Under the pieces are notes generated by a model. That model searched no databases. It was not told where the DNA came from and saw only the letters and a list, made by a program, of their open reading frames with translations. The position numbers and the translations under genes were made by a program. Below are positions 1 to 8,644 of a DNA stretch of 8,644 nucleotides, in pieces; the first letter of the stretch is position 1, and each line of letters begins with the position of its first letter. Source of the stretch: a virus (lineage: Duplodnaviria > Heunggongvirae > Uroviricota > Caudoviricetes). The DNA lies in IMG/VR virus record IMGVR_UViG_2734482535_000008. One strand, 5' to 3'.

Positions 1-28
1 AGGGACAGCTGATAGAAACAGAAGCCAC
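1..28 (-). CDS. insA: IS1 InsA N-terminal fragment, 5' partial (GTG start at 28-26, continues past the window start)
   Basis: Minus-strand GTG GCT TCT GTT TCT ATC AGC TGT CCC translates V/M-A-S-V-S-I-S-C-P, matching the remembered InsA N-terminus MASVSISCPSC; GAGGTG lies 7 nt upstream. Confidence 0.6.
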
Positions 29-83
29 TGGAGCACCTCAAAAACACCATCATACACTAAATCAGTAAGTTGGCAGCATCACC
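1..83 (-). mobile_element. IS1 insertion sequence, terminal 83 bp including the left inverted repeat (window 61-83); element continues beyond the window start
   Basis: Reverse complement of 1-83 reads GGTGATGCTGCCAACTTACTGATTTAGTGTATGATGGTGTTTTTGAGGTGCTCCAGTGGCTTCTGTTTCTATCAGCTGTCCCT, which I recognise as the canonical IS1 left end (IRL GGTGATGCTGCCAACTTACTGAT followed by the insA start region). Recognised from memory, not from a search. Confidence 0.88.
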
Positions 84-98
84 TCATTCGTCTGTTCC

Positions 99-605
99 TT
101 AAATCTTCCAGGAAATTTCTGCATTGCCGTCAGCATCACCGGCACCTGTGAATTCAGCGTTGGTCAGCACCACGTTTTTGCCACTGACTGACGTGGACAT
201 GAATCCACCCAGCGGCACTTTGATGGATTCATCAGTGGAGACGACAACGTATACCGGATCGCCTTTTTTGATAGTGCTGGCATCAAAATCAGAACCGAGA
301 TTAACGGTCACGTAGCCACGCTTCATGGCGTCGCCCGGGAAGTTCTTGCCTGTTCCCACCTGGCGAACCATGTCCGGCTGCGACGTGGTCGGATAAGGGC
401 GCACGTAGATCCCCTTCACCTTGTCTGCGGTATCACCATCTGCCAGCGGCACGAAAAAACCGTCATCATCGTATTTACCAGCCAGGCCATAGGCAGCGAA
501 GGCGTTATCGGATTTAAGGACCACCGGTTCGACGGTTAAGTCCTGCGGGCGAGAGACAGCCCCGGCAATGCCAACAGGCATCCGGTACAGAAATACATTA
601 TTCAT
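99..605 (-). CDS. Phage head-module structural protein of unknown exact role, 168 aa (possible decoration/accessory capsid protein)
   Basis: Intact ORF with a GGG Shine-Dalgarno 7-9 nt before the ATG at 605. It starts 4 nt after the stop of the upstream scaffold-like gene and follows the terS-terL-portal-MuF-scaffold order. The Gly/Asp/Val-rich sequence looks beta-rich. IS1 begins 15 bp after its stop codon. Confidence 0.7.
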   Translation of the reverse strand: MNNVFLYRMPVGIAGAVSRPQDLTVEPVVLKSDNAFAAYGLAGKYDDDGFFVPLADGDTADKVKGIYVRPYPTTSQPDMVRQVGTGKNFPGDAMKRGYVTVNLGSDFDASTIKKGDPVYVVVSTDESIKVPLGGFMSTSVSGKNVVLTNAEFTGAGDADGNAEISWKI

Positions 606-608
606 TTT

Positions 609-1829
609 TTACCCTTTACGGTTTGCCCAGAATTCAGCGTTTTGTTTGTTCAGGGAAGCGATACTGGTCATGCCCATGTTTAGGCGCTGTGCATCGCCGG
701 TGGTGGCGCGGGTGTTTCGCCCTTTGGCAACCTCAGACACGGCATTAAACGCCATGTCGACCGATTGTTTCGGTAATTTGCGGATATCCGCATCACCGAC
801 TATCTGGCGAACCAGCGTTTTGTCAGCAGAAGCCAGAACCTCGCGTTTGAACGCGGTCGGTTTCATCTTACGGCTCAGATCGATACCCGGAACGATAACT
901 TCGGCACGCCAGGCTGAGTCACCAGTAATCGTGGTTTCCTCTTCATCGTCCTCGCCGTCACCGGTCGGATTATCGTCAGGCTTATTATCGTTATCGCCCG
1001 TGGCATTTCTTTCCAGCTTAGCCAGCAGGGCTTTCAGTAATGTTTTGAGGTCATCATCACTGTCGCCGGTTGGATCTCCGCCCATCTCTGGTGCTTTGTC
1101 CGGTAGTGGTTGCTGCGGGGACAGGTTGATGTTGAGATTAACGCCCTGCGGCAAATCCCCCTCATCTCCTGTAACCGATGCGGGAGCCGACTCCACCAGT
1201 TCGTTCATGGTGTCGGCATCTCCTGTCTTGATGGCCGCACGCATGCGGTTCCACCAGTTTTTCTTTTGATTTGCCATTGTGTCTCTGTCTCCAATTGCAC
1301 AACGATTTCCGGCTCTGCCTTTAGGGACAAGAGCCACATGGTTTCCGGTAATATCGACCTGCTCGGCTTTACCTGGCTCGGTCTGCTCGTACTCCGCGTC
1401 ATAGCCGCACGACACTTCGCGCAGGCCATCTTCGATAAGCTGAATGGCGCTTTCGTCTTTGACGATAAGGTCAGCCAGCATCAAATCAGACTGCTCACCC
1501 GTCCCGCGCCGGACATTCTGGAGGTGCCCGACAGCAAGCTCTTTCCAGTTCTCGGGATTTACCAGCCGCACATTCCCGTTTTCATCTTCAGGATGCAGGA
1601 TCGTGATGCTCATCCCTTCGAATGAGGCAAGCGTGGCCGGATGGAATACCTGCTCAGGAGAACGCGTGACGACTATTTCACCGAACTTATCGGGTTTCAG
1701 TTTTGGCAGGTCATCAGCACCATAGAGCTGCTTACCTGTTCGTCCTATCGGCACGTCTTTGCACAGCAACGAGCCGTCAGCCAGGCGGTATCGGGTTTCC
1801 CCGAGCCTGGTCTCAAAAAAGTATTTCAT
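609..1829 (-). CDS. Phage prohead scaffolding/protease-like protein (DUF2213-like), 406 aa, with an acidic low-complexity C-terminal half
   Basis: Intact 406-aa ORF in the position where head-assembly clusters carry scaffold/protease. The C-terminal half has Asp/Glu-rich and Thr/Gly/Asp-rich stretches (for example TGDNDNKPDDNPTGDGEDDEEETT) typical of scaffolding proteins. ATG at 1829 lies 4 nt after the head-morphogenesis stop. Family assignment is from memory. Confidence 0.75.
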   Translation of the reverse strand: MKYFFETRLGETRYRLADGSLLCKDVPIGRTGKQLYGADDLPKLKPDKFGEIVVTRSPEQVFHPATLASFEGMSITILHPEDENGNVRLVNPENWKELAVGHLQNVRRGTGEQSDLMLADLIVKDESAIQLIEDGLREVSCGYDAEYEQTEPGKAEQVDITGNHVALVPKGRAGNRCAIGDRDTMANQKKNWWNRMRAAIKTGDADTMNELVESAPASVTGDEGDLPQGVNLNINLSPQQPLPDKAPEMGGDPTGDSDDDLKTLLKALLAKLERNATGDNDNKPDDNPTGDGEDDEEETTITGDSAWRAEVIVPGIDLSRKMKPTAFKREVLASADKTLVRQIVGDADIRKLPKQSVDMAFNAVSEVAKGRNTRATTGDAQRLNMGMTSIASLNKQNAEFWANRKG

Positions 1830-1832
1830 GGG

Positions 1833-2615
1833 TTATGCTGCCCTTTTCATTGCGAATGGAACGCGAACAAACACGATCTCTTTATAGCAGCGGCAGTTTG
1901 GCAGCTCGCCCGCGTGGCCGGTCATGCCGTCCAAAGTTGGAGGTGAATCCCAGCGGACGAATTTACCTTTCATGTGATCGTGGGAATCTCGGACATCGCC
2001 ATCATCGGCTGTACGCCAAATATAACCATCCGAGCCAATAGCTATCGCTCGGGCCATATCCAGCGCGCCCGTTGCTCTTCCCAGTTCCGTTCGGGCAATC
2101 AGATCGGCCCTAGACTTAGCAACATCGCCGGTAGATGCAATCTCTTTAGCAAACTGCTCCGCCCGACCACCGGTGACAACAGCCTCTATCGCTTTGTTCT
2201 GGATGTCGTACACCCTGTCTGCGGCCTCGAGAGGCAGAGATTTGATGTACTTGACCTGTTCGGCGATGATGGATTGCATCACCTGGCCCACAGGAGCGCT
2301 TTCCACAAGATTGCGGAGCTCGCGACTGATGTTCTTGCTGTGTTGCCGCCAAACTTTCTCGTTCTGCCGGGTTAGGTCCGCAGTAAAGTTTTCCGCGACC
2401 TTTGTCGCCCAGGGGGTGATGATTTCACTGTAACGCTCCAGCGCCGCAATAATTTCCGTGATACTGTCATTTGAACCATCGTAGCGACCATTTACGATGT
2501 CTCCGACCGCCCTCGCTATCCTGCGTAGGCTGGTTCGATACCGGATTTCCGCCTGACGGCTCCTGCGGTTCGTCATCAGGTTCGCCGATGCCGGGCGGCG
2601 CTTCATCTTCGGCAT
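1833..2615 (-). CDS. Phage head morphogenesis protein (Mu gpF / SPP1 gp7 family minor head protein)
   Basis: 260-aa ORF located directly after the portal gene, as in the Mu gpF / SPP1 gp7 family; the sequence has the general look of that family, but I cannot name a specific conserved motif from memory. Start is ambiguous (ATG at 2615, 2606 or 2576); every candidate overlaps the portal 3' end by at least 110 nt. Confidence 0.78.
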   Translation of the reverse strand: MPKMKRRPASANLMTNRRSRQAEIRYRTSLRRIARAVGDIVNGRYDGSNDSITEIIAALERYSEIITPWATKVAENFTADLTRQNEKVWRQHSKNISRELRNLVESAPVGQVMQSIIAEQVKYIKSLPLEAADRVYDIQNKAIEAVVTGGRAEQFAKEIASTGDVAKSRADLIARTELGRATGALDMARAIAIGSDGYIWRTADDGDVRDSHDHMKGKFVRWDSPPTLDGMTGHAGELPNCRCYKEIVFVRVPFAMKRAA

Positions 2616-3549
2616 TCTCGATGTCCTCGTCGGTAATGGATGCCCCGATGCCGGTTACGTCAGAATTTTCTCGCAAATCAGTCATAGCGGCTTTCAGTGT
2701 CATCAGACCATCACCCAGCGCCGTACTGATTGCGTTGGTGGTGTTTAACGCCACCGTTGAGCGATCGACATCAGACATTTGCCAGAGCGGGTTAAACTCA
2801 AACGTGAAATCGTCCGGCAGCGGCTTGCCAAGTTCCGAACGATGCATGATGTCCAGTATCCGCCGCACCGGAAGACGTAAACGCCTCTCCTGCAACGAAC
2901 TGATGCGATCGTAATAGTTGGCAAGGTCTGCATCACCGGTAGAAAATCCTTTCGGGGACTGTCCGAACAACCGCACCAGTGGGATACCAACAGCGCCACT
3001 AATCTGTTCTACAAACTGCGAAAGGATGTCATCCAGACCACTGAAGCTGTACTGATGGGTTTCAAACTTATCCCGCGAGTCCATGAGCGTCATGCCTTCA
3101 TTACTCTGGAACTGTCGAATCAGGTCGATATTCTTCAGCAACGCTTCATACGCAGGACCACCAAGTGCGATAAGCTCGCGTAGCTTCTCCACGCTGTAGG
3201 TACGCAAATGCGCCTTGTAGACCAGCTGCGCCGCGCCGACAGTAGCGCTGTCGAACGCGGTAAGACGATCCCAGATACGCTCTACAACCGACATTCCCCA
3301 TTCGTTCTCGGTCATCTTCTGCTGAAATGGCAACGTGACGCCATCAAAGCGAATCAGGCGACTGTGATGAATGCGCCAGGCAGGAATTCCCGTTGCTGTG
3401 GTCACCACATCGTAAAACTCAGGTTTACCCAGGTCCGGCCCCATATCTTTAATGCGGCGGGTCAGTGCCGGGTCGACCATCCAGCGGTCGAGCGGGAGAA
3501 TCCCCTTAAACTTGCCCTTACCGATGGTTTCGGGTCGCAGCGGGGTCAT
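2467..3549 (-). CDS. Phage portal protein, intact C-terminal 360-codon ORF of an interrupted portal gene
   Basis: 360-aa ORF in the portal position immediately after terL. It is in the same reading frame as 383 nt of upstream coding-like sequence that reaches an ATG overlapping the terL stop (see the pseudogene feature). Acidic Pro/Glu/Asp-rich C-terminal tail. Confidence 0.7.
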   Translation of the reverse strand: MTPLRPETIGKGKFKGILPLDRWMVDPALTRRIKDMGPDLGKPEFYDVVTTATGIPAWRIHHSRLIRFDGVTLPFQQKMTENEWGMSVVERIWDRLTAFDSATVGAAQLVYKAHLRTYSVEKLRELIALGGPAYEALLKNIDLIRQFQSNEGMTLMDSRDKFETHQYSFSGLDDILSQFVEQISGAVGIPLVRLFGQSPKGFSTGDADLANYYDRISSLQERRLRLPVRRILDIMHRSELGKPLPDDFTFEFNPLWQMSDVDRSTVALNTTNAISTALGDGLMTLKAAMTDLRENSDVTGIGASITDEDIENAEDEAPPGIGEPDDEPQEPSGGNPVSNQPTQDSEGGRRHRKWSLRWFK

Positions 3550-3933
3550 TGGTGCCTACCCCTCAATCATGATGAAACCCACCGCGCCGCCGTAGAGGCG
3601 CGACCATTTCAGCACGTCATTCAGCGCATCCCAGATTTGCAACTCATCCAGTTGTGATTCGAGAATGCCACGATCTTTTGCATCAATTTCCGAAGTGATG
3701 CGAATGCCTTTGCGGGTCATATCATCCGGGATAGCATCGACTGCTTCGCCGATGATCTAGGATGAACGATAGGACCATTCCACCAGCATGCGGTTACGAC
3801 TGGTGAAATTAGCCCGGTAGGTGGATGCTGAGTGCTGGTTAGGTGTCTGCATCCCTACGCGGGCAATAAAATTCTCATAACCATCAGCTGTGGCCTGCAC
3901 AGTTCGCCGCAGGGCTTGTTTGTTTCGTGCCAT
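2467..3933 (-). pseudogene. Full-length portal reading frame (489 codons) interrupted by two in-frame TAG codons at 3759-3757 and 3558-3556
   Basis: My manual minus-strand translation from ATG 3933-3931 (overlapping the terL TGA as ATGA) gives MARNKQALRRTVQATADGYENFIARVGMQTPNQHSASTYRANFTSRNRMLVEWSYRSS*IIGEAVDAIPDDMTRKGIRITSEIDAKDRGILESQLDELQIWDALNDVLKWSRLYGGAVGFIMIEG*AP, then the MTPLRPETIGKG ORF, all in one frame. 489 codons is a normal portal size. Confidence 0.65.
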
Positions 3934-5363
3934 CAGGCCTGTCTCCCCAGCTGTTCCCAGATATCCAGCGATGTATCGATTGGCGCGAAGGCCATAATGA
4001 ATGCATCAGCAACGTTTGGTGACGGTATCTCGCGTTTTGCGAGGTCTTTTTTACTTTCGACCATCACACGTCCGTTACGGTCGAAATCACGATGAGGTGT
4101 TGTCAGTTCCAGTTTCAGCTTTTCAAGCAACGGACAACGAGAATCTATGCTGATCAGCTCATCCACAGGATACTGTTCTCCGTTGTTAATGGCGTTAAAC
4201 GTATTTCTGAAACGGTCAGCCACCAGCCACCATGCCTGAGCCTTAAGATTTGCGAAAAAGTCTTTGTTGGGGATGCCGTTGTACTCGTCATCTGGCTCAT
4301 GCACACCAGCACCGGCGTTAAACCTCTGGTAATTCACACGTCGCGCGTATGCGTTCTCGCTCTTCCGGTCAGCGTTAATTTCAGAGAATTTAGCACCGGC
4401 AGACGCACCAACACCGATAGAGTCGTAAACAATATCTGCTTCACGCTCCAGCGCCGCCTGATAAGTACGCTGGCAGCTCTTCAGTAATTCATCTTCTTTG
4501 GCCTTCCATTCGTCGGCCCAGAAAACAACGGATCCGTGACGGTAAACGTTAGCGCACTTATCTGTACCACTGTCAGCCACGTCAAAGCCAATACGCTTTC
4601 TTCCACTGGGTTCGAAATTTAACGTTTTGTGCGCATCCACTGCGGCTTCTATCCAAGACAGTTTGATGATTGCCGCATCATCATCAGACTCCGGAACGCC
4701 CTCATACACATGTTTAAAACCATCCGGATCACGGCGTCGCGCCGCGTCGATAACCTTAAGCATGGTGTCAGACAGAAACGGATTTTCGTCATAGTTAATT
4801 TTGCGGATGAGAGTGCCTTCGGGCGGATCAACAACGAAGTTGCGCCAGACGAAATCAGTAACAAGTCCGGGGTTGAATATGAACCAGCATTCCGAACCCT
4901 CTTTACGGATCGTTGGCTCCAGAATTTTCCACTGGTATTCCGTCAGTGCGTGGGCTTCTTCCAGCCACAACACATCGATCCCCTCCAGTGACTTAATTTC
5001 TTCGATGTTGCGCCATAATCCATAAAAAACAAATTCCGAGCCAGTAACCCGGTTAATGATTTTGTTGTTCAGAATACGGAAACGGTGCCGCAGACCAAAC
5101 CTGTCTATCTGAATTTTGAGCAGGGTATACACCGACTCTTCGATTTTATTCTGGATCTGACGGGCACAACAAAAACGCAGGGTGTATTTATTCGACAGAA
5201 ATATGGCAATGCCAGCGGCATCCCATGATTTTGACGATGACCGACCACCATAAAGCACTTTGTTACGTGCCCGCATAGTCCAGAAACTACGTAAAGCCGG
5301 ATTCAGCGTCGGTTTGGATGTCAGAGTAGAAGTCATTGAGGTCACGCTCTCCATTGCCATCAT
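3933..5363 (-). CDS. terL: Phage terminase large subunit (PBSX / Terminase_3-type ATPase-nuclease)
   Basis: N-terminal Walker A-like KVLYGGRSSSKSWD and a downstream LWLEEAH Walker B-like/DExx segment. The ORF is open to 5444, where the track used a TTG start. I prefer ATG 5363 (AGGT 5-8 nt upstream); ATG 5336, 5354 or 5375 are also possible. All overlap the terS 3' end. The stop overlaps the portal ATG. Confidence 0.88.
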   Translation of the reverse strand: MMAMESVTSMTSTLTSKPTLNPALRSFWTMRARNKVLYGGRSSSKSWDAAGIAIFLSNKYTLRFCCARQIQNKIEESVYTLLKIQIDRFGLRHRFRILNNKIINRVTGSEFVFYGLWRNIEEIKSLEGIDVLWLEEAHALTEYQWKILEPTIRKEGSECWFIFNPGLVTDFVWRNFVVDPPEGTLIRKINYDENPFLSDTMLKVIDAARRRDPDGFKHVYEGVPESDDDAAIIKLSWIEAAVDAHKTLNFEPSGRKRIGFDVADSGTDKCANVYRHGSVVFWADEWKAKEDELLKSCQRTYQAALEREADIVYDSIGVGASAGAKFSEINADRKSENAYARRVNYQRFNAGAGVHEPDDEYNGIPNKDFFANLKAQAWWLVADRFRNTFNAINNGEQYPVDELISIDSRCPLLEKLKLELTTPHRDFDRNGRVMVESKKDLAKREIPSPNVADAFIMAFAPIDTSLDIWEQLGRQA

Positions 5364-6051
5364 CAATACCTGCATCACGGCGAAGACGATCAGCCTCCAG
5401 AGACACCTTATCAGTGGCGGCCTTGCGGTAGGCTGTATCAGCAAATATTTTTCCTACCGTCGCAAGCGTGCCAACGATGGACTCAATACGAACTGTATTG
5501 CGCATCATTGCTTTCTCGGCGGCGCTGATATTTTCAATCAGCATCTTCCTTTCCTGGTCCCCATTAGCATCTTCCAGCGACACCAACCACCGACCAATAT
5601 TCTCTGCAGCGACAAGGTTGTTAGCACGAAGGCGAAATAATTCGTCCTCGAGCGTCAACGCTTTAGCGTCCTCTATCACCTCATCTTTGAGCAGAAGGCG
5701 ACGGGCATAACCACCGTGTTTTAATGCCTGCTGGTTACCGGGTTGGAATGGGTTAGTCGGGGGATCGGTACGCATTCCGCGTATCGGTTTCGTATCCGGT
5801 GTAGATTCTGTTTTTAGTTGCGTACTTTTTTGTGTAAGGCCAGTAATGGCAGGCTTTCTGCTGGTACGCACTTTCCTTTTTTGCGTACCATTTTTGCAAA
5901 CCTGCGTACCGCCACTGCGTGCCCAACCAAGCTTTTTGGCCCTCTTCCTGATAGCCCCTTCTGTAACGCCGTATTTCTCGCCTATATCACGGAGGCTAAG
6001 GACTCCGGCCCGGTATGCCGATTCGATGGCCTCCCAGTCCGGTTTTGCCAT
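5287..6051 (-). CDS. terS: Phage terminase small subunit with N-terminal helix-turn-helix DNA-binding domain
   Basis: N-terminus AIESAYRAGVLSLRDIGEKYGVTEGAIRKRAKKLGW is a typical terminase small-subunit HTH. It sits immediately upstream of and overlaps terL. AGGAAG Shine-Dalgarno 8 nt before the ATG at 6051. Confidence 0.82.
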   Translation of the reverse strand: MAKPDWEAIESAYRAGVLSLRDIGEKYGVTEGAIRKRAKKLGWARSGGTQVCKNGTQKRKVRTSRKPAITGLTQKSTQLKTESTPDTKPIRGMRTDPPTNPFQPGNQQALKHGGYARRLLLKDEVIEDAKALTLEDELFRLRANNLVAAENIGRWLVSLEDANGDQERKMLIENISAAEKAMMRNTVRIESIVGTLATVGKIFADTAYRKAATDKVSLEADRLRRDAGIDDGNGERDLNDFYSDIQTDAESGFT

Positions 6052-6248
6052 GATTATGCTTCCTGTGATTTACTGTTATCGCTGCCTGTCACAATAGGTT
6101 GCTTTAATTCTTCCTCATCACTCACTCCTGCGACGCTCCGTGGCAGGGCCCCCCACAGGAGTACCTTGTAAATGTAAGGTGTTTAAGCCTAAATTAAGTC
6201 GTATCACGGTTAAATAGCAAAGAAAAATTCACAGAAGGAAAGACATTG

Positions 6249-6758
6249 ATGGAGTGGATAAATGCTTTGATGAACTATTTTGTACTTCATCCATATCGCC
6301 TATGGGGGCTTCTTTTTATAATAGCGTTCACAAAATCCACTTTACTCATTTCGGCGATATTGCCACCAGCATCAATTATGATGGCCACTGTAATTACAGT
6401 CAGCAAGACGACTCTTTCACCATGGGAAGCTGGAATCACGGTCATGAGTGGCGCATGGTGCGGTACTATCGTTAATTACCATCTTGGTATAATAATTGGG
6501 CATATCCCTCAACTTGCATGTATAATATCAAGCCGTTCCAATACAATAGAACGGGTTCGCCTTCAGTTGCAAAATAACTCTGTGTCAATACTTTTCACTT
6601 CGCGCTTTATCGCCGTGCTGCGTTATATTGCTCCTTTGGTGGCAGGAATGTTGCAACTTCATCCAGTGAAAGTGTATACAGTGAGTCTGATTTCAGCTGC
6701 TAGCTGGTCAGCACTTTATGTTGGTAGTTTTAGCTTCGTGTTGCCTTTTTTTAGCTAA
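6249..6758 (+). CDS. AT-rich cargo gene: 169-aa multi-pass inner-membrane protein with DedA/VTT-domain-like motifs (YqaA-like small DedA)
   Basis: The only plus-strand gene, antisense to the phage late operon. AAGGAA Shine-Dalgarno 9 nt before ATG 6249 (the track's 6246 start is a TTG one codon earlier). Visibly lower GC than the flanking genes. About 5 hydrophobic segments. SRFIAVLRYIAPLVAGM resembles the DedA re-entrant motif G-R-F-x-x-x-R-x-x-x-P-x-x-AG, and ILPPASIMMATVITV resembles the N-terminal LPGDS region. Family assignment is my pattern match, not a search. Confidence 0.72.
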   Translation: MEWINALMNYFVLHPYRLWGLLFIIAFTKSTLLISAILPPASIMMATVITVSKTTLSPWEAGITVMSGAWCGTIVNYHLGIIIGHIPQLACIISSRSNTIERVRLQLQNNSVSILFTSRFIAVLRYIAPLVAGMLQLHPVKVYTVSLISAASWSALYVGSFSFVLPFFS

Positions 6759-6846
6759 ACTGCCCATAAAAAGCTCTTGCGAATCCAGCTTCCCCCATTC
6801 CTCTGACAACAGAATCTGATTTGAAGGATAATGAGTAAAATTACCG

Positions 6847-7317
6847 CTACCCCCCAAGGCATTGGATCCTGATGTACTCCTGAAGCATTCTCAATGCTGT
6901 CTGGTCGCTGATGATTCCGTCCCGGATACCGAGAACGTTTCGTCCAGCAACTGGAGAGAGTTCGACGGTGGCATCATTGCCCATGCCGGAGGCGCTGGAG
7001 GTTTCGGCTGAGGATGGCACAGGGCATTTTCCTTTGACGAACACCCGACCACCATTATCAAGCTTGCGCCGAAGAGCATCATTTTCAGCTTTCGCATCAG
7101 CTAACTCCTTCGTGTATTTAGCATCGAGTGCATCAGCATCACGCTGGCGCTGCTGCATGTCAGTAATGGTTGCGTTCGCCAGCTTCAGTTCTCTTGCGTT
7201 TTTGTCGCGCTGCTCTTTGTAGGTAATGGCGTTATCACGGTAATGATTAACAGCCCATGACAGGCGGACGATGATGCAGATAACCAGAGCGGAGATAATC
7301 GCGGTGACTCTGCTCAT
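6847..7317 (-). CDS. Rz: Rz i-spanin (inner-membrane spanin subunit)
   Basis: [54 protein letters not shown] is closely similar to lambda/P21 Rz: an N-terminal transmembrane segment followed by a coiled-coil. ATG 7317-7315 overlaps the endolysin TGA (ATGA). The track ORF starts 4 codons earlier at 7329. Confidence 0.88.
6891..7097 (-). CDS. Rz1: Rz1 o-spanin (outer-membrane lipoprotein), embedded in the +1 frame of Rz
   Basis: [23 protein letters not shown] has a signal peptide and VVGC lipobox followed by a Pro-rich [11 protein letters not shown] segment, as in lambda Rz1. Strong AAGGAG Shine-Dalgarno 7 nt before ATG 7097. Lies wholly inside Rz. Confidence 0.85.
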
Positions 7318-7811
7318 TGCTGCCCCCACAAACAGACTTCACGCTCAATCTCACGACGGGTCATCAGCCCTTTCCATTGCTTACCGCCAGCATATGTCCA
7401 GCGACATAGCTGGTCACATGCGCCTTTGATATAGCCCTGGTTTATTTTGCGAAGAAGCGTCGATGTTCTGAAATTGCCAGCGCCCACGTTGTAAACGAAC
7501 GAGTAAAGAGCGCCGCGCGTTGTTTCCGGTATATCGACTTTGATGTACGGGTTAATTTGTCTGGCGACAGTGGCAAGGTCTTTATTCAGGAGGGCTTTGC
7601 ATTCTGCTTCGGTATACGTTTTACCGAGCATGATGTCTTTTCCGGTGTGTCCGTGACATACAGTCCATACACCAATGATATCTTTGTATGGTATGTAGCT
7701 GACACCTTCCAGACCATCGTTACCACCTGGGCCAGTGATTAACACAGATGCTATAGCAACAGCCCCACCACCAATAGCAGCTGCAACAGCCTTGCGTAAT
7801 GATGGCGACAT
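7314..7811 (-). CDS. R: SAR endolysin (phage 21 R-type lysozyme, T4-lysozyme / GH24 fold with N-terminal signal-anchor-release domain)
   Basis: Near-identical to my memory of phage 21 R: Gly/Ala-rich SAR segment [20 protein letters not shown] followed by [25 protein letters not shown] carrying the Glu/Asp/Thr catalytic positions. ATG overlaps the holin stop (TAATG). Confidence 0.92.
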
Positions 7812-8026
7812 TATTCACCTCTCGCAGCCTTACGCTTGTCTTCTCTTATTTTGAAATACAGATTTGTCAGATAAGTCAGAAGCCCCAGAAGCAGACTTCC
7901 CAGCACACCAATCGCAGCCCACTGTGATGGACTGACCTGATCCAACCACTGCAAAAACCAGTAGCCGGCACTGCCGGCGGAGGTGCCGTAGGCAATGCCT
8001 GTTGATATTTTTTCCATCTGATACAT
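7811..8026 (-). CDS. S: Class II pinholin (phage 21 S21-type) with dual-start motif M1-Y-Q-M4
   Basis: [71 protein letters not shown] closely matches S21 68/71: two transmembrane domains and a charged C-terminus. Two in-frame ATGs three codons apart, at 8026 and 8017. Confidence 0.92.
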
Positions 8027-8056
8027 ATCCCGCCCCCCGACAGACCTGTGCTATCG

Positions 8057-8093
8057 GAAAGAAAAAAGGCCATCAGCAAAACTCTGATGGCCT
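8057..8093 (-). terminator. Rho-independent terminator on the minus strand, about 30 nt upstream of the holin start (tR'-like late-leader terminator)
   Basis: Perfect 9-bp inverted repeat GGCCATCAG (8068-8076) / CTGATGGCC (8084-8092) with a 7-nt loop. On the minus strand it is followed by TTTTTTCTTTC (complement of 8067-8057). Confidence 0.7.
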
Positions 8094-8137
8094 GAATCAC
8101 CTTTACCAATATTGTATGAAAAAACACGCACGACTAA

Positions 8138-8166
8138 TTGACAATAATTTTCATTTCCATTAAAAA
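8138..8166 (+). promoter_or_regulatory. Candidate sigma70 promoter on the plus strand (TTGACA-N17-TAAAAA)
   Basis: Consensus -35 TTGACA at 8138-8143, 17-bp AT-rich spacer, then TAAAAA (4/6 match to TATAAT). Sequence-only prediction. Confidence 0.25.
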
Positions 8167-8201
8167 AGATCGCGTAGCATTCTTAATTCATGAGGAACTT
8201 T

Positions 8202-8570: not shown

Positions 8571-8644
8571 TGAAGTGGCACACTGAATTTGGCCACCTGA
8601 ACAGAGGTGATATGCTCACCTCAGAACAACACAGGTGCTCCAAT
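8571..8644 (+). mobile_element. IS911 (IS3 family) left end, 74 bp; element continues beyond the window end, with the orfA ATG beginning at 8642
   Basis: 8571-8644 reads TGAAGTGGCACACTGAATTTGGCCACCTGAACAGAGGTGATATGCTCACCTCAGAACAACACAGGTGCTCCAAT, which I recognise as the IS911 left inverted repeat and orfA leader. It has the IS3-family terminal TGA. Recognised from memory. Confidence 0.82.

Follow-up and report, generated by a model that had tools for sequence, protein, structure and literature searches.

The portal gene of the prophage in this window, by which we mean the whole stretch of 8,644 nucleotides that was analysed, is best explained as a pseudogene inactivated by two independent nonsense mutations within a cryptic prophage remnant, truncated by IS elements and fixed in Shigella sonnei, a reading to which we give a probability of roughly 0.93. 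In reverse-complement orientation, the window equals the complete 8644-bp contig CWXM01000155.1 from the draft assembly GCA_001257735.1. Translation of its minus strand gives a frame running from an ATG at 3933-3931 to a TGA at 2469-2467, which comprises 488 sense positions and the stop and contains no frameshift. The only stops interrupting it are a TAG at 3759-3757 (codon 59) and another at 3558-3556 (codon 126). This retranslation agrees with an earlier note on the same DNA, which had described a continuous 489-codon portal frame from the ATG at 3933 with two amber codons and no frameshift. A frame of 489 codons would by chance be expected to hold about 23 stops as against the 2 observed, which points to a gene that was broken recently, as opposed to an ORF arisen by chance. 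The portal ATG has one base (A) in common with the TGA of terL at 3935-3933, and the same overlap between the terL stop and the portal start is seen in annotated relatives. The features of the frame are as follows.

2467..3933, minus strand: portal pseudogene of the PF06381 Phage_portal_3 / TIGR01555 HI1409 family, with 488 codons before its TGA and TAG at two internal positions
3757..3759, minus strand: amber codon 59, from TGG (Trp), by a plus-strand C>T at 3758
3556..3558, minus strand: amber codon 126, from CAG (Gln), by a plus-strand G>A at 3558
3011, minus strand: A308V (GCA>GTA), the third lineage-specific change in the portal, a G:C>A:T transition
3757..3933, minus strand: N-terminal fragment ORF of 58 aa (residues 1-58), from the ORF list
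3556..3720, minus strand: middle fragment ORF of 54 aa (M72-G125), from the ORF list
2467..3549, minus strand: C-terminal fragment ORF of 360 aa (M129 to the end), from the ORF list, which the earlier note had taken from that list as the portal ORF; its ATG has GAGGGG 9 nt ahead of it

The assignment to the portal family draws on both profiles and structures. With X placed at the stops, the translation is recognized by the Pfam model Phage_portal_3 (PF06381, formerly DUF1073) with 348 bits against a cut-off of 33.8, in a match over residues 55-402 that spans both stops. The restored orthologue reaches 255 bits with TIGR01555 (cut-off 196), while the 360-aa fragment alone scores 186 and falls below that cut-off. 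The restored portal is further matched to the solved Pam3 portal 8hds (E = 2e-37, residues 15-413) and to other solved portals, including E217 gp19 8fvh. The gene lies directly downstream of terL in the head module, and the MuF, DUF2213 and cement genes come next. What it lacks is an uninterrupted full-length frame, given the TAG at codons 59 and 126; it is a pseudogene of the portal family and not a functional member of it. Some near-identical DUF1073/PF06381 portals (in the E. coli records H18 and H69 and the cluster members P0034, P0036 and P0064) carry the NCBI name 'anti-CBASS protein Acb1 family protein'. Given the homology to Pam3 8hds and the position beside terL, this name looks like annotation spill-over, and the protein is clearly a portal.

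Intact relatives allowed the ancestral codons to be read directly. A megablast search of complete E. coli genomes recovered 338 in which 80% or more of the region is present; FDAARGOS_943, FDAARGOS_944 and VL40 rank highest among them, with 99.8%. The intact 488-aa portal of these EIEC-like E. coli prophages is WP_000113499.1. A base-by-base comparison of the portal with FDAARGOS_943 gives exactly three differences (TGG59 to TAG, CAG126 to TAG and GCA308 to GTA), all of which are G:C>A:T transitions, and the closest relatives (L001, L005 and L006, 99.8%) differ from it at those three bases only. Both TGG and CAG are retained in E. coli P4, phage vB_EcoM-689R2 and Salmonella phage SEN34, and the Pam3 portal 8hds has Trp and Gln aligned with these two codons. 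Sense codons are present at both sites in all six of the loci L001-L006, and CAG126 is present in S. dysenteriae Sd197 (L017). Thus, as the alignment to intact portals proposed in the earlier note makes plain, the TAGs stand for TGG (Trp) and CAG (Gln), each a single transition away. The portals of WP_000113499.1, vB_EcoM-689R2 and SEN34 share with the window the gene, its length and its start over the terL stop, and have TGG59, CAG126 and GCA308 where the window has TAG, TAG and GTA. At the nucleotide level the identity to vB_EcoM-689R2 is 98.0% in the 1467-nt gene and 97.4% over a 1.6-kb query, and that to the SEN34 portal is 84.6%. Intact homologues starting at the equivalent of 3549, which would make the upstream part of the frame foreign to the gene, were not what we found: in all annotated relatives the portal is a single 1467-nt CDS of 488 aa with its start at the equivalent of 3933.

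The earlier note had also raised the possibility that the stops are errors of sequencing. The contig is indeed a short-read draft, and the right end of the window, beyond about 7400, looks like a path through repeated lysis cassettes. However, exact look-up placed each of the three fragments on at least 1000 contigs, with source proteins named Shigella sonnei; the 360-aa fragment alone was found in 2576 index blocks, with Q3Z426_SHISS as an example from UniProt. The S. sonnei loci (L007-L016, L021-L029, L036 and L037) all match positions 1-7040 of the window exactly and have both TAGs, and the portal region is single-copy and 100% identical in those examined. Complete S. sonnei chromosomes with both TAGs come from independent projects (HE616528.1, CP022457.1, CP019689.1 and CP044191.1). 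Since the same fragments recur in thousands of independent S. sonnei assemblies, complete genomes included, sequencing error is excluded as the source of the stops, and an artefact of the draft contig has a negligible chance of having produced them. For E. coli, we used 61-mers centred on each TAG, which matched 273 and 142 complete genomes respectively, none of them exactly; the TAG alleles are accordingly seen in 0/273 and 0/142 of these. Therefore, the two TAGs are genuine derived changes confined to the lineage of S. sonnei.

The element around the portal is itself incomplete. As transcribed, the gene order on the minus strand is holin, lysozyme, Rz, a 254-aa ORF, terL, portal, MuF, DUF2213 and cement; Rz is separated from the 254-aa ORF by a DedA-family gene that lies on the other strand. 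The window consists of the lysis module and the left part of the head module. The neighbours and boundaries of the portal are listed below.

3933..5336, minus strand: large terminase subunit gene terL (Terminase_3), 467 aa, intact, its stop overlapping the portal ATG
1833..2576, minus strand: Mu F-like head morphogenesis gene, 247 aa, intact, from a profile match and relatives
1..83, unstranded: IS1 terminal sequence, which abuts the prophage 15 bp past the cement-gene stop
8573..8644, unstranded: IS911 terminal sequence at the contig end, from a sequence match

The MuF gene overlaps the 3' end of the portal by 110 nt (2467-2576) in a different frame, and is likewise annotated so in relatives. 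The IS1 end at 1-83 and the IS911 end at 8573-8644 bear out the flanks that the earlier note had read from the letters, and it is because of these two repeats that the draft contig ends where it does. Past the cement gene, intact relatives carry the major capsid gene and, further on, those for neck and tail. In S. sonnei the IS1 InsA/InsB genes stand beside the cement gene (L007-L016) and are followed by chromosomal genes, and neither the major capsid gene nor any of the tail genes is left at the locus. Furthermore, IS2 lies within the holin gene in complete S. sonnei genomes, with a 5-bp duplication of 7829-7833 (most S. sonnei), an IS110-family element is found at 8033-8036 in many complete S. 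sonnei genomes, and the tRNA cluster that follows the holin in relatives is gone or reduced in S. sonnei. The prophage is thus a remnant, with no partners for a portal at the locus. The terL, MuF, DUF2213 and cement genes are still intact in the window, and the intactness of these neighbouring head genes suggests that the decay is recent and partial.

Several other aspects of the element were noted in passing. The DedA/VTT-domain membrane protein gene (6246-6758, plus strand; WP_011069285.1 in relatives) separates the lysis cassette from the terminase genes, recurs in every relative examined and looks like a moron-type cargo gene. The 254-aa ORF (5287-6051, minus strand) occupies the position of a small terminase subunit and shares 50 nt with the beginning of terL; its terminator is TAG, and it had no match in Pfam or NCBIfam. 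The four-tRNA cluster past the holin in intact relatives was located at 14623-14933 in L005 and 14235-14542 in L006. The two share Thr-tgt, Arg-tct and a cat-anticodon tRNA annotated as Ile, and the first slot is filled by tRNA-Gly(tcc) in one and tRNA-Val(tac) in the other. Of this cluster, only the cat-anticodon tRNA is retained in S. sonnei 53G (L010, 2320-2393). At the right end, complete S. sonnei genomes diverge from the window at 7041-7865, and the holin of the window is without the IS2 that splits it in those genomes. Compared with L036 (GCA_900159875.1, FUBE01000042.1), the window is 100% identical over 1-7405 and then jumps to a second holin-lysozyme copy (window 7267-8201); L036 has three holin and two lysozyme copies, with an N6/N4 methyltransferase gene between them. 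The right end of the window hence reflects either an assembly path collapsed over repeats or a structural variant, and this difference in the lysis cassette is irrelevant to the portal.

Related prophages have been damaged independently. S. dysenteriae Sd197 (L017, CP000034.1, 9211-15482) has the same head module, with the portal truncated by IS1 and both the DUF2213 and the cement gene broken into two pieces. The 360-aa portal ORF of Sd197 had suggested that it shares the amber at codon 126. This was rejected upon inspection of the DNA, as CAG is kept at codon 126 and the end of the IS1 lies about 70 nt upstream of the equivalent of the ATG at 3549; the common ORF length is a coincidence that results from the IS1 truncation. 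In the same strain IS1 also cuts the module after an E217_gp27-like gene, and the major capsid gene is retained. FDAARGOS_943 (L001, 1829-6668), whose portal is intact, has an IS2 in terL with duplication of the window equivalent of 4883-4888, and an internal stop in its MuF gene resulting from a C>T at window position 1950. As a rule, prophages of this family decay through lesions that differ from host to host.

We then considered whether the substitutions themselves are out of the ordinary. Comparison of bases over 84-7140 revealed eight changes specific to the S. sonnei lineage, six of which are G:C>A:T transitions.

3011, 3558 and 3758, minus strand: portal, all three altering the protein
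5055 (terL), 5593 (254-aa ORF) and 6530 (DedA gene): synonymous
7139: A60D in Rz
622: S403N in DUF2213, a change also present in Sd197

The restored portal allows 794 G:C>A:T transitions, of which 49 are nonsense; TAG results from 28 of these 49 (57%), a share that is due to CAG (n=17) and TGG (n=11) being the main targets. The probability that both of two nonsense events would be amber is about 0.33, and the view of the earlier note that it is notable for both stops to be amber consequently does not stand. Finding at least two nonsense changes among 6-8 substitutions has a probability of 0.03-0.06, a mild excess for a window that was chosen for its stops; the figure is further weakened by the second stop being neutral in a gene that was already dead.

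The shared identity of the two stops could also be understood if the portal were conditionally functional, with both ambers read through by a suppressor tRNA of the host or the prophage, in the manner of supE or supF. Such suppression would fit with the rest of the frame being undamaged except for A308V. Yet the ancestral residues are Trp at one site and Gln at the other, so that a single suppressor would not bring back both, and conservation of W59 extends to Pam3. A restored portal would moreover be without assembly partners at this locus, where IS1 and chromosomal genes have taken the place of the major capsid gene and all tail genes, and within the element both the 254-aa ORF and Rz are terminated by TAG. 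The window has no tRNA genes, and no tRNA-CUA was detected in 21-kb flanks from S. sonnei or among the tRNA clusters of the relatives (six flanking or related loci). Dependence on an amber-suppressor host, which the earlier note had entertained, thus finds sites needing both Trp and Gln, no tRNA-CUA in the window or its flanks and a locus from which the virion genes are gone, and we regard it as very unlikely. Laboratory amber mutants of portal genes are well known, such as lambda B am, P22 gene 1 am and T4 gene 20 am. The present case resembles them in that a G:C>A:T transition turned CAG or TGG into TAG within a portal gene. However, those have a single mutation in an otherwise complete phage grown on a suppressor host, whereas here there are two sites with different residues in a remnant that lacks the capsid and tail genes at its locus, and no suppressor is in view.

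An in-frame TAG in a late structural gene is likewise typical of recoded phages (bioRxiv 10.1101/2021.08.26.457843; PMC9523058), and reassignment of TAG under an alternative code, as in the code-15 phages, would account for this likeness. Unlike in those phages, an in-frame TAG is found in only one of ten genes and TAG terminates two genes, there is no suppressor tRNA in the window, its flanks or the clusters of the relatives, and the TAGs are absent from all the relatives, which have sense codons for two different amino acids at the two sites. Reassignment of the codon is accordingly given next to no chance of being correct.

The distribution of the changes bears more on the idea that the portal was knocked out adaptively, the loss of the packaging machinery having been selected in the host as a form of domestication or taming. 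All 3 of the 3 portal changes alter the protein, while those in terL, the 254-aa ORF and the DedA gene are all synonymous; the excess of nonsense changes noted above points the same way, as do the IS1 in the related portal of S. dysenteriae and the existence of single-amber haplotypes on Logan contigs. The numbers are tiny, however, and come from a window selected for its stops. One stop would suffice for inactivation, which leaves the second without a selective explanation, and relatives have been hit in other genes (terL, MuF, DUF2213 and cement). The Logan haplotypes, in turn, are mosaics of two sets of alleles, as would be expected from mixed or two-copy assemblies. Nothing in the data requires adaptive inactivation, and we consider it improbable.

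These Logan contigs were found by exact look-up of hypothetical intermediate proteins; they are few, and derive from short assemblies of short reads (L031, SRR17313989; L032, SRR1185302; L033, ERR6005742; L034, SRR1185284; L035, SRR1184664). The variable window positions inspected in them were 3011, 3558, 3758, 3859 and 4226-4232. L034 has V308 only, with no amber; L031 has V308 and TAG126 with W59; L033 has TAG126 with W59, site 3011 being outside the contig; and L035 has A308 and Q126 with TAG59. A 7-bp deletion in terL (4226-4232) is found in L031, L032, L034 and L035, and is absent from L033 and from S. sonnei. Taken together with the S. sonnei and ancestral haplotypes, they fail the four-gamete test, and no single linear order of mutations explains the combinations. 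At every site just the two known alleles are seen, three of the contigs break at 4673 and one ends beside 3558. Given that only two allele sets occur, and given the common break points and the contig end at 3558, the simplest reading is that these haplotypes are probably chimeric assemblies of two co-resident or mixed copies. We had attempted to derive the order of the mutations from these intermediates, and abandoned this since the contigs are mosaic, share the terL deletion and have common breaks, and are hence not trusted as true haplotypes. There is a slim chance that they are real and that W59* and Q126* arose or were shuffled repeatedly among Shigella/EIEC lineages; if true, this would point to selection for portal knock-out, that is host-driven taming, as against neutral decay.

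Returning to the decay of a cryptic prophage as the preferred explanation, the observations at its base are the ancestral codons, the restriction to one lineage, the reproducibility of the stops and the IS truncation. The changes W59 TGG>TAG and Q126 CAG>TAG would represent independent single-base events in the 5' third of the portal, ordinary G:C>A:T transitions that may have piled up under relaxed selection. Ribosomes are predicted to stop at codon 59, which would leave no functional portal, and the second stop is neutral once the first is present. We infer that the changes were neutral and that the remnant is unable to form particles, and the same applies to any order of events. Against decay one may set the mild excess of two nonsense changes among 6-8 (P = 0.03-0.06), the allele combinations on the Logan contigs and the intact terL, MuF, DUF2213 and cement genes. 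With single transitions from TGG and CAG, IS1 and IS911 at the ends and the capsid and tail genes gone, the explanation favored in the earlier note, namely nonsense decay in a defective IS-flanked prophage, is the one that is upheld.

Cryptic prophage remnants such as DLP12, Rac and Qin of E. coli K-12 provide the closest parallel. Pervasive domestication of defective prophages by bacteria has reportedly been described by Bobay et al. (PNAS, 2014). Like the cryptic prophages of E. coli and Shigella in general, this element is a lambdoid mosaic fixed in one host lineage, interrupted by IS elements, with loss of structural genes by nonsense mutation and a G:C>A:T bias. In contrast to lambda, its head module is of the SEN34 (Brunovirus) / Pam3 / E217 type. 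Nothing of substance separates it from prophages of the K-12 type, the decay here being recent and most of the neighboring genes intact. Expansion of IS elements and pseudogenisation are known features of Shigella genomes (PMC8072062), and the portal of this window is a textbook cryptic-prophage pseudogene that is already known, in the sense that its fragments are already in public annotation.

The significance of the finding is small and lies mainly in annotation hygiene. It has nothing new to say on translation, suppression or variation of the genetic code. The 58-, 54- and 360-aa 'bacteriophage proteins' that were deposited separately in S. sonnei are pieces of one dead portal gene. Beyond this, the locus offers a clean and datable case of recent prophage decay in Shigella, in which two transitions and an IS1 truncation are set against an intact EIEC-like copy that is 99.8% identical.
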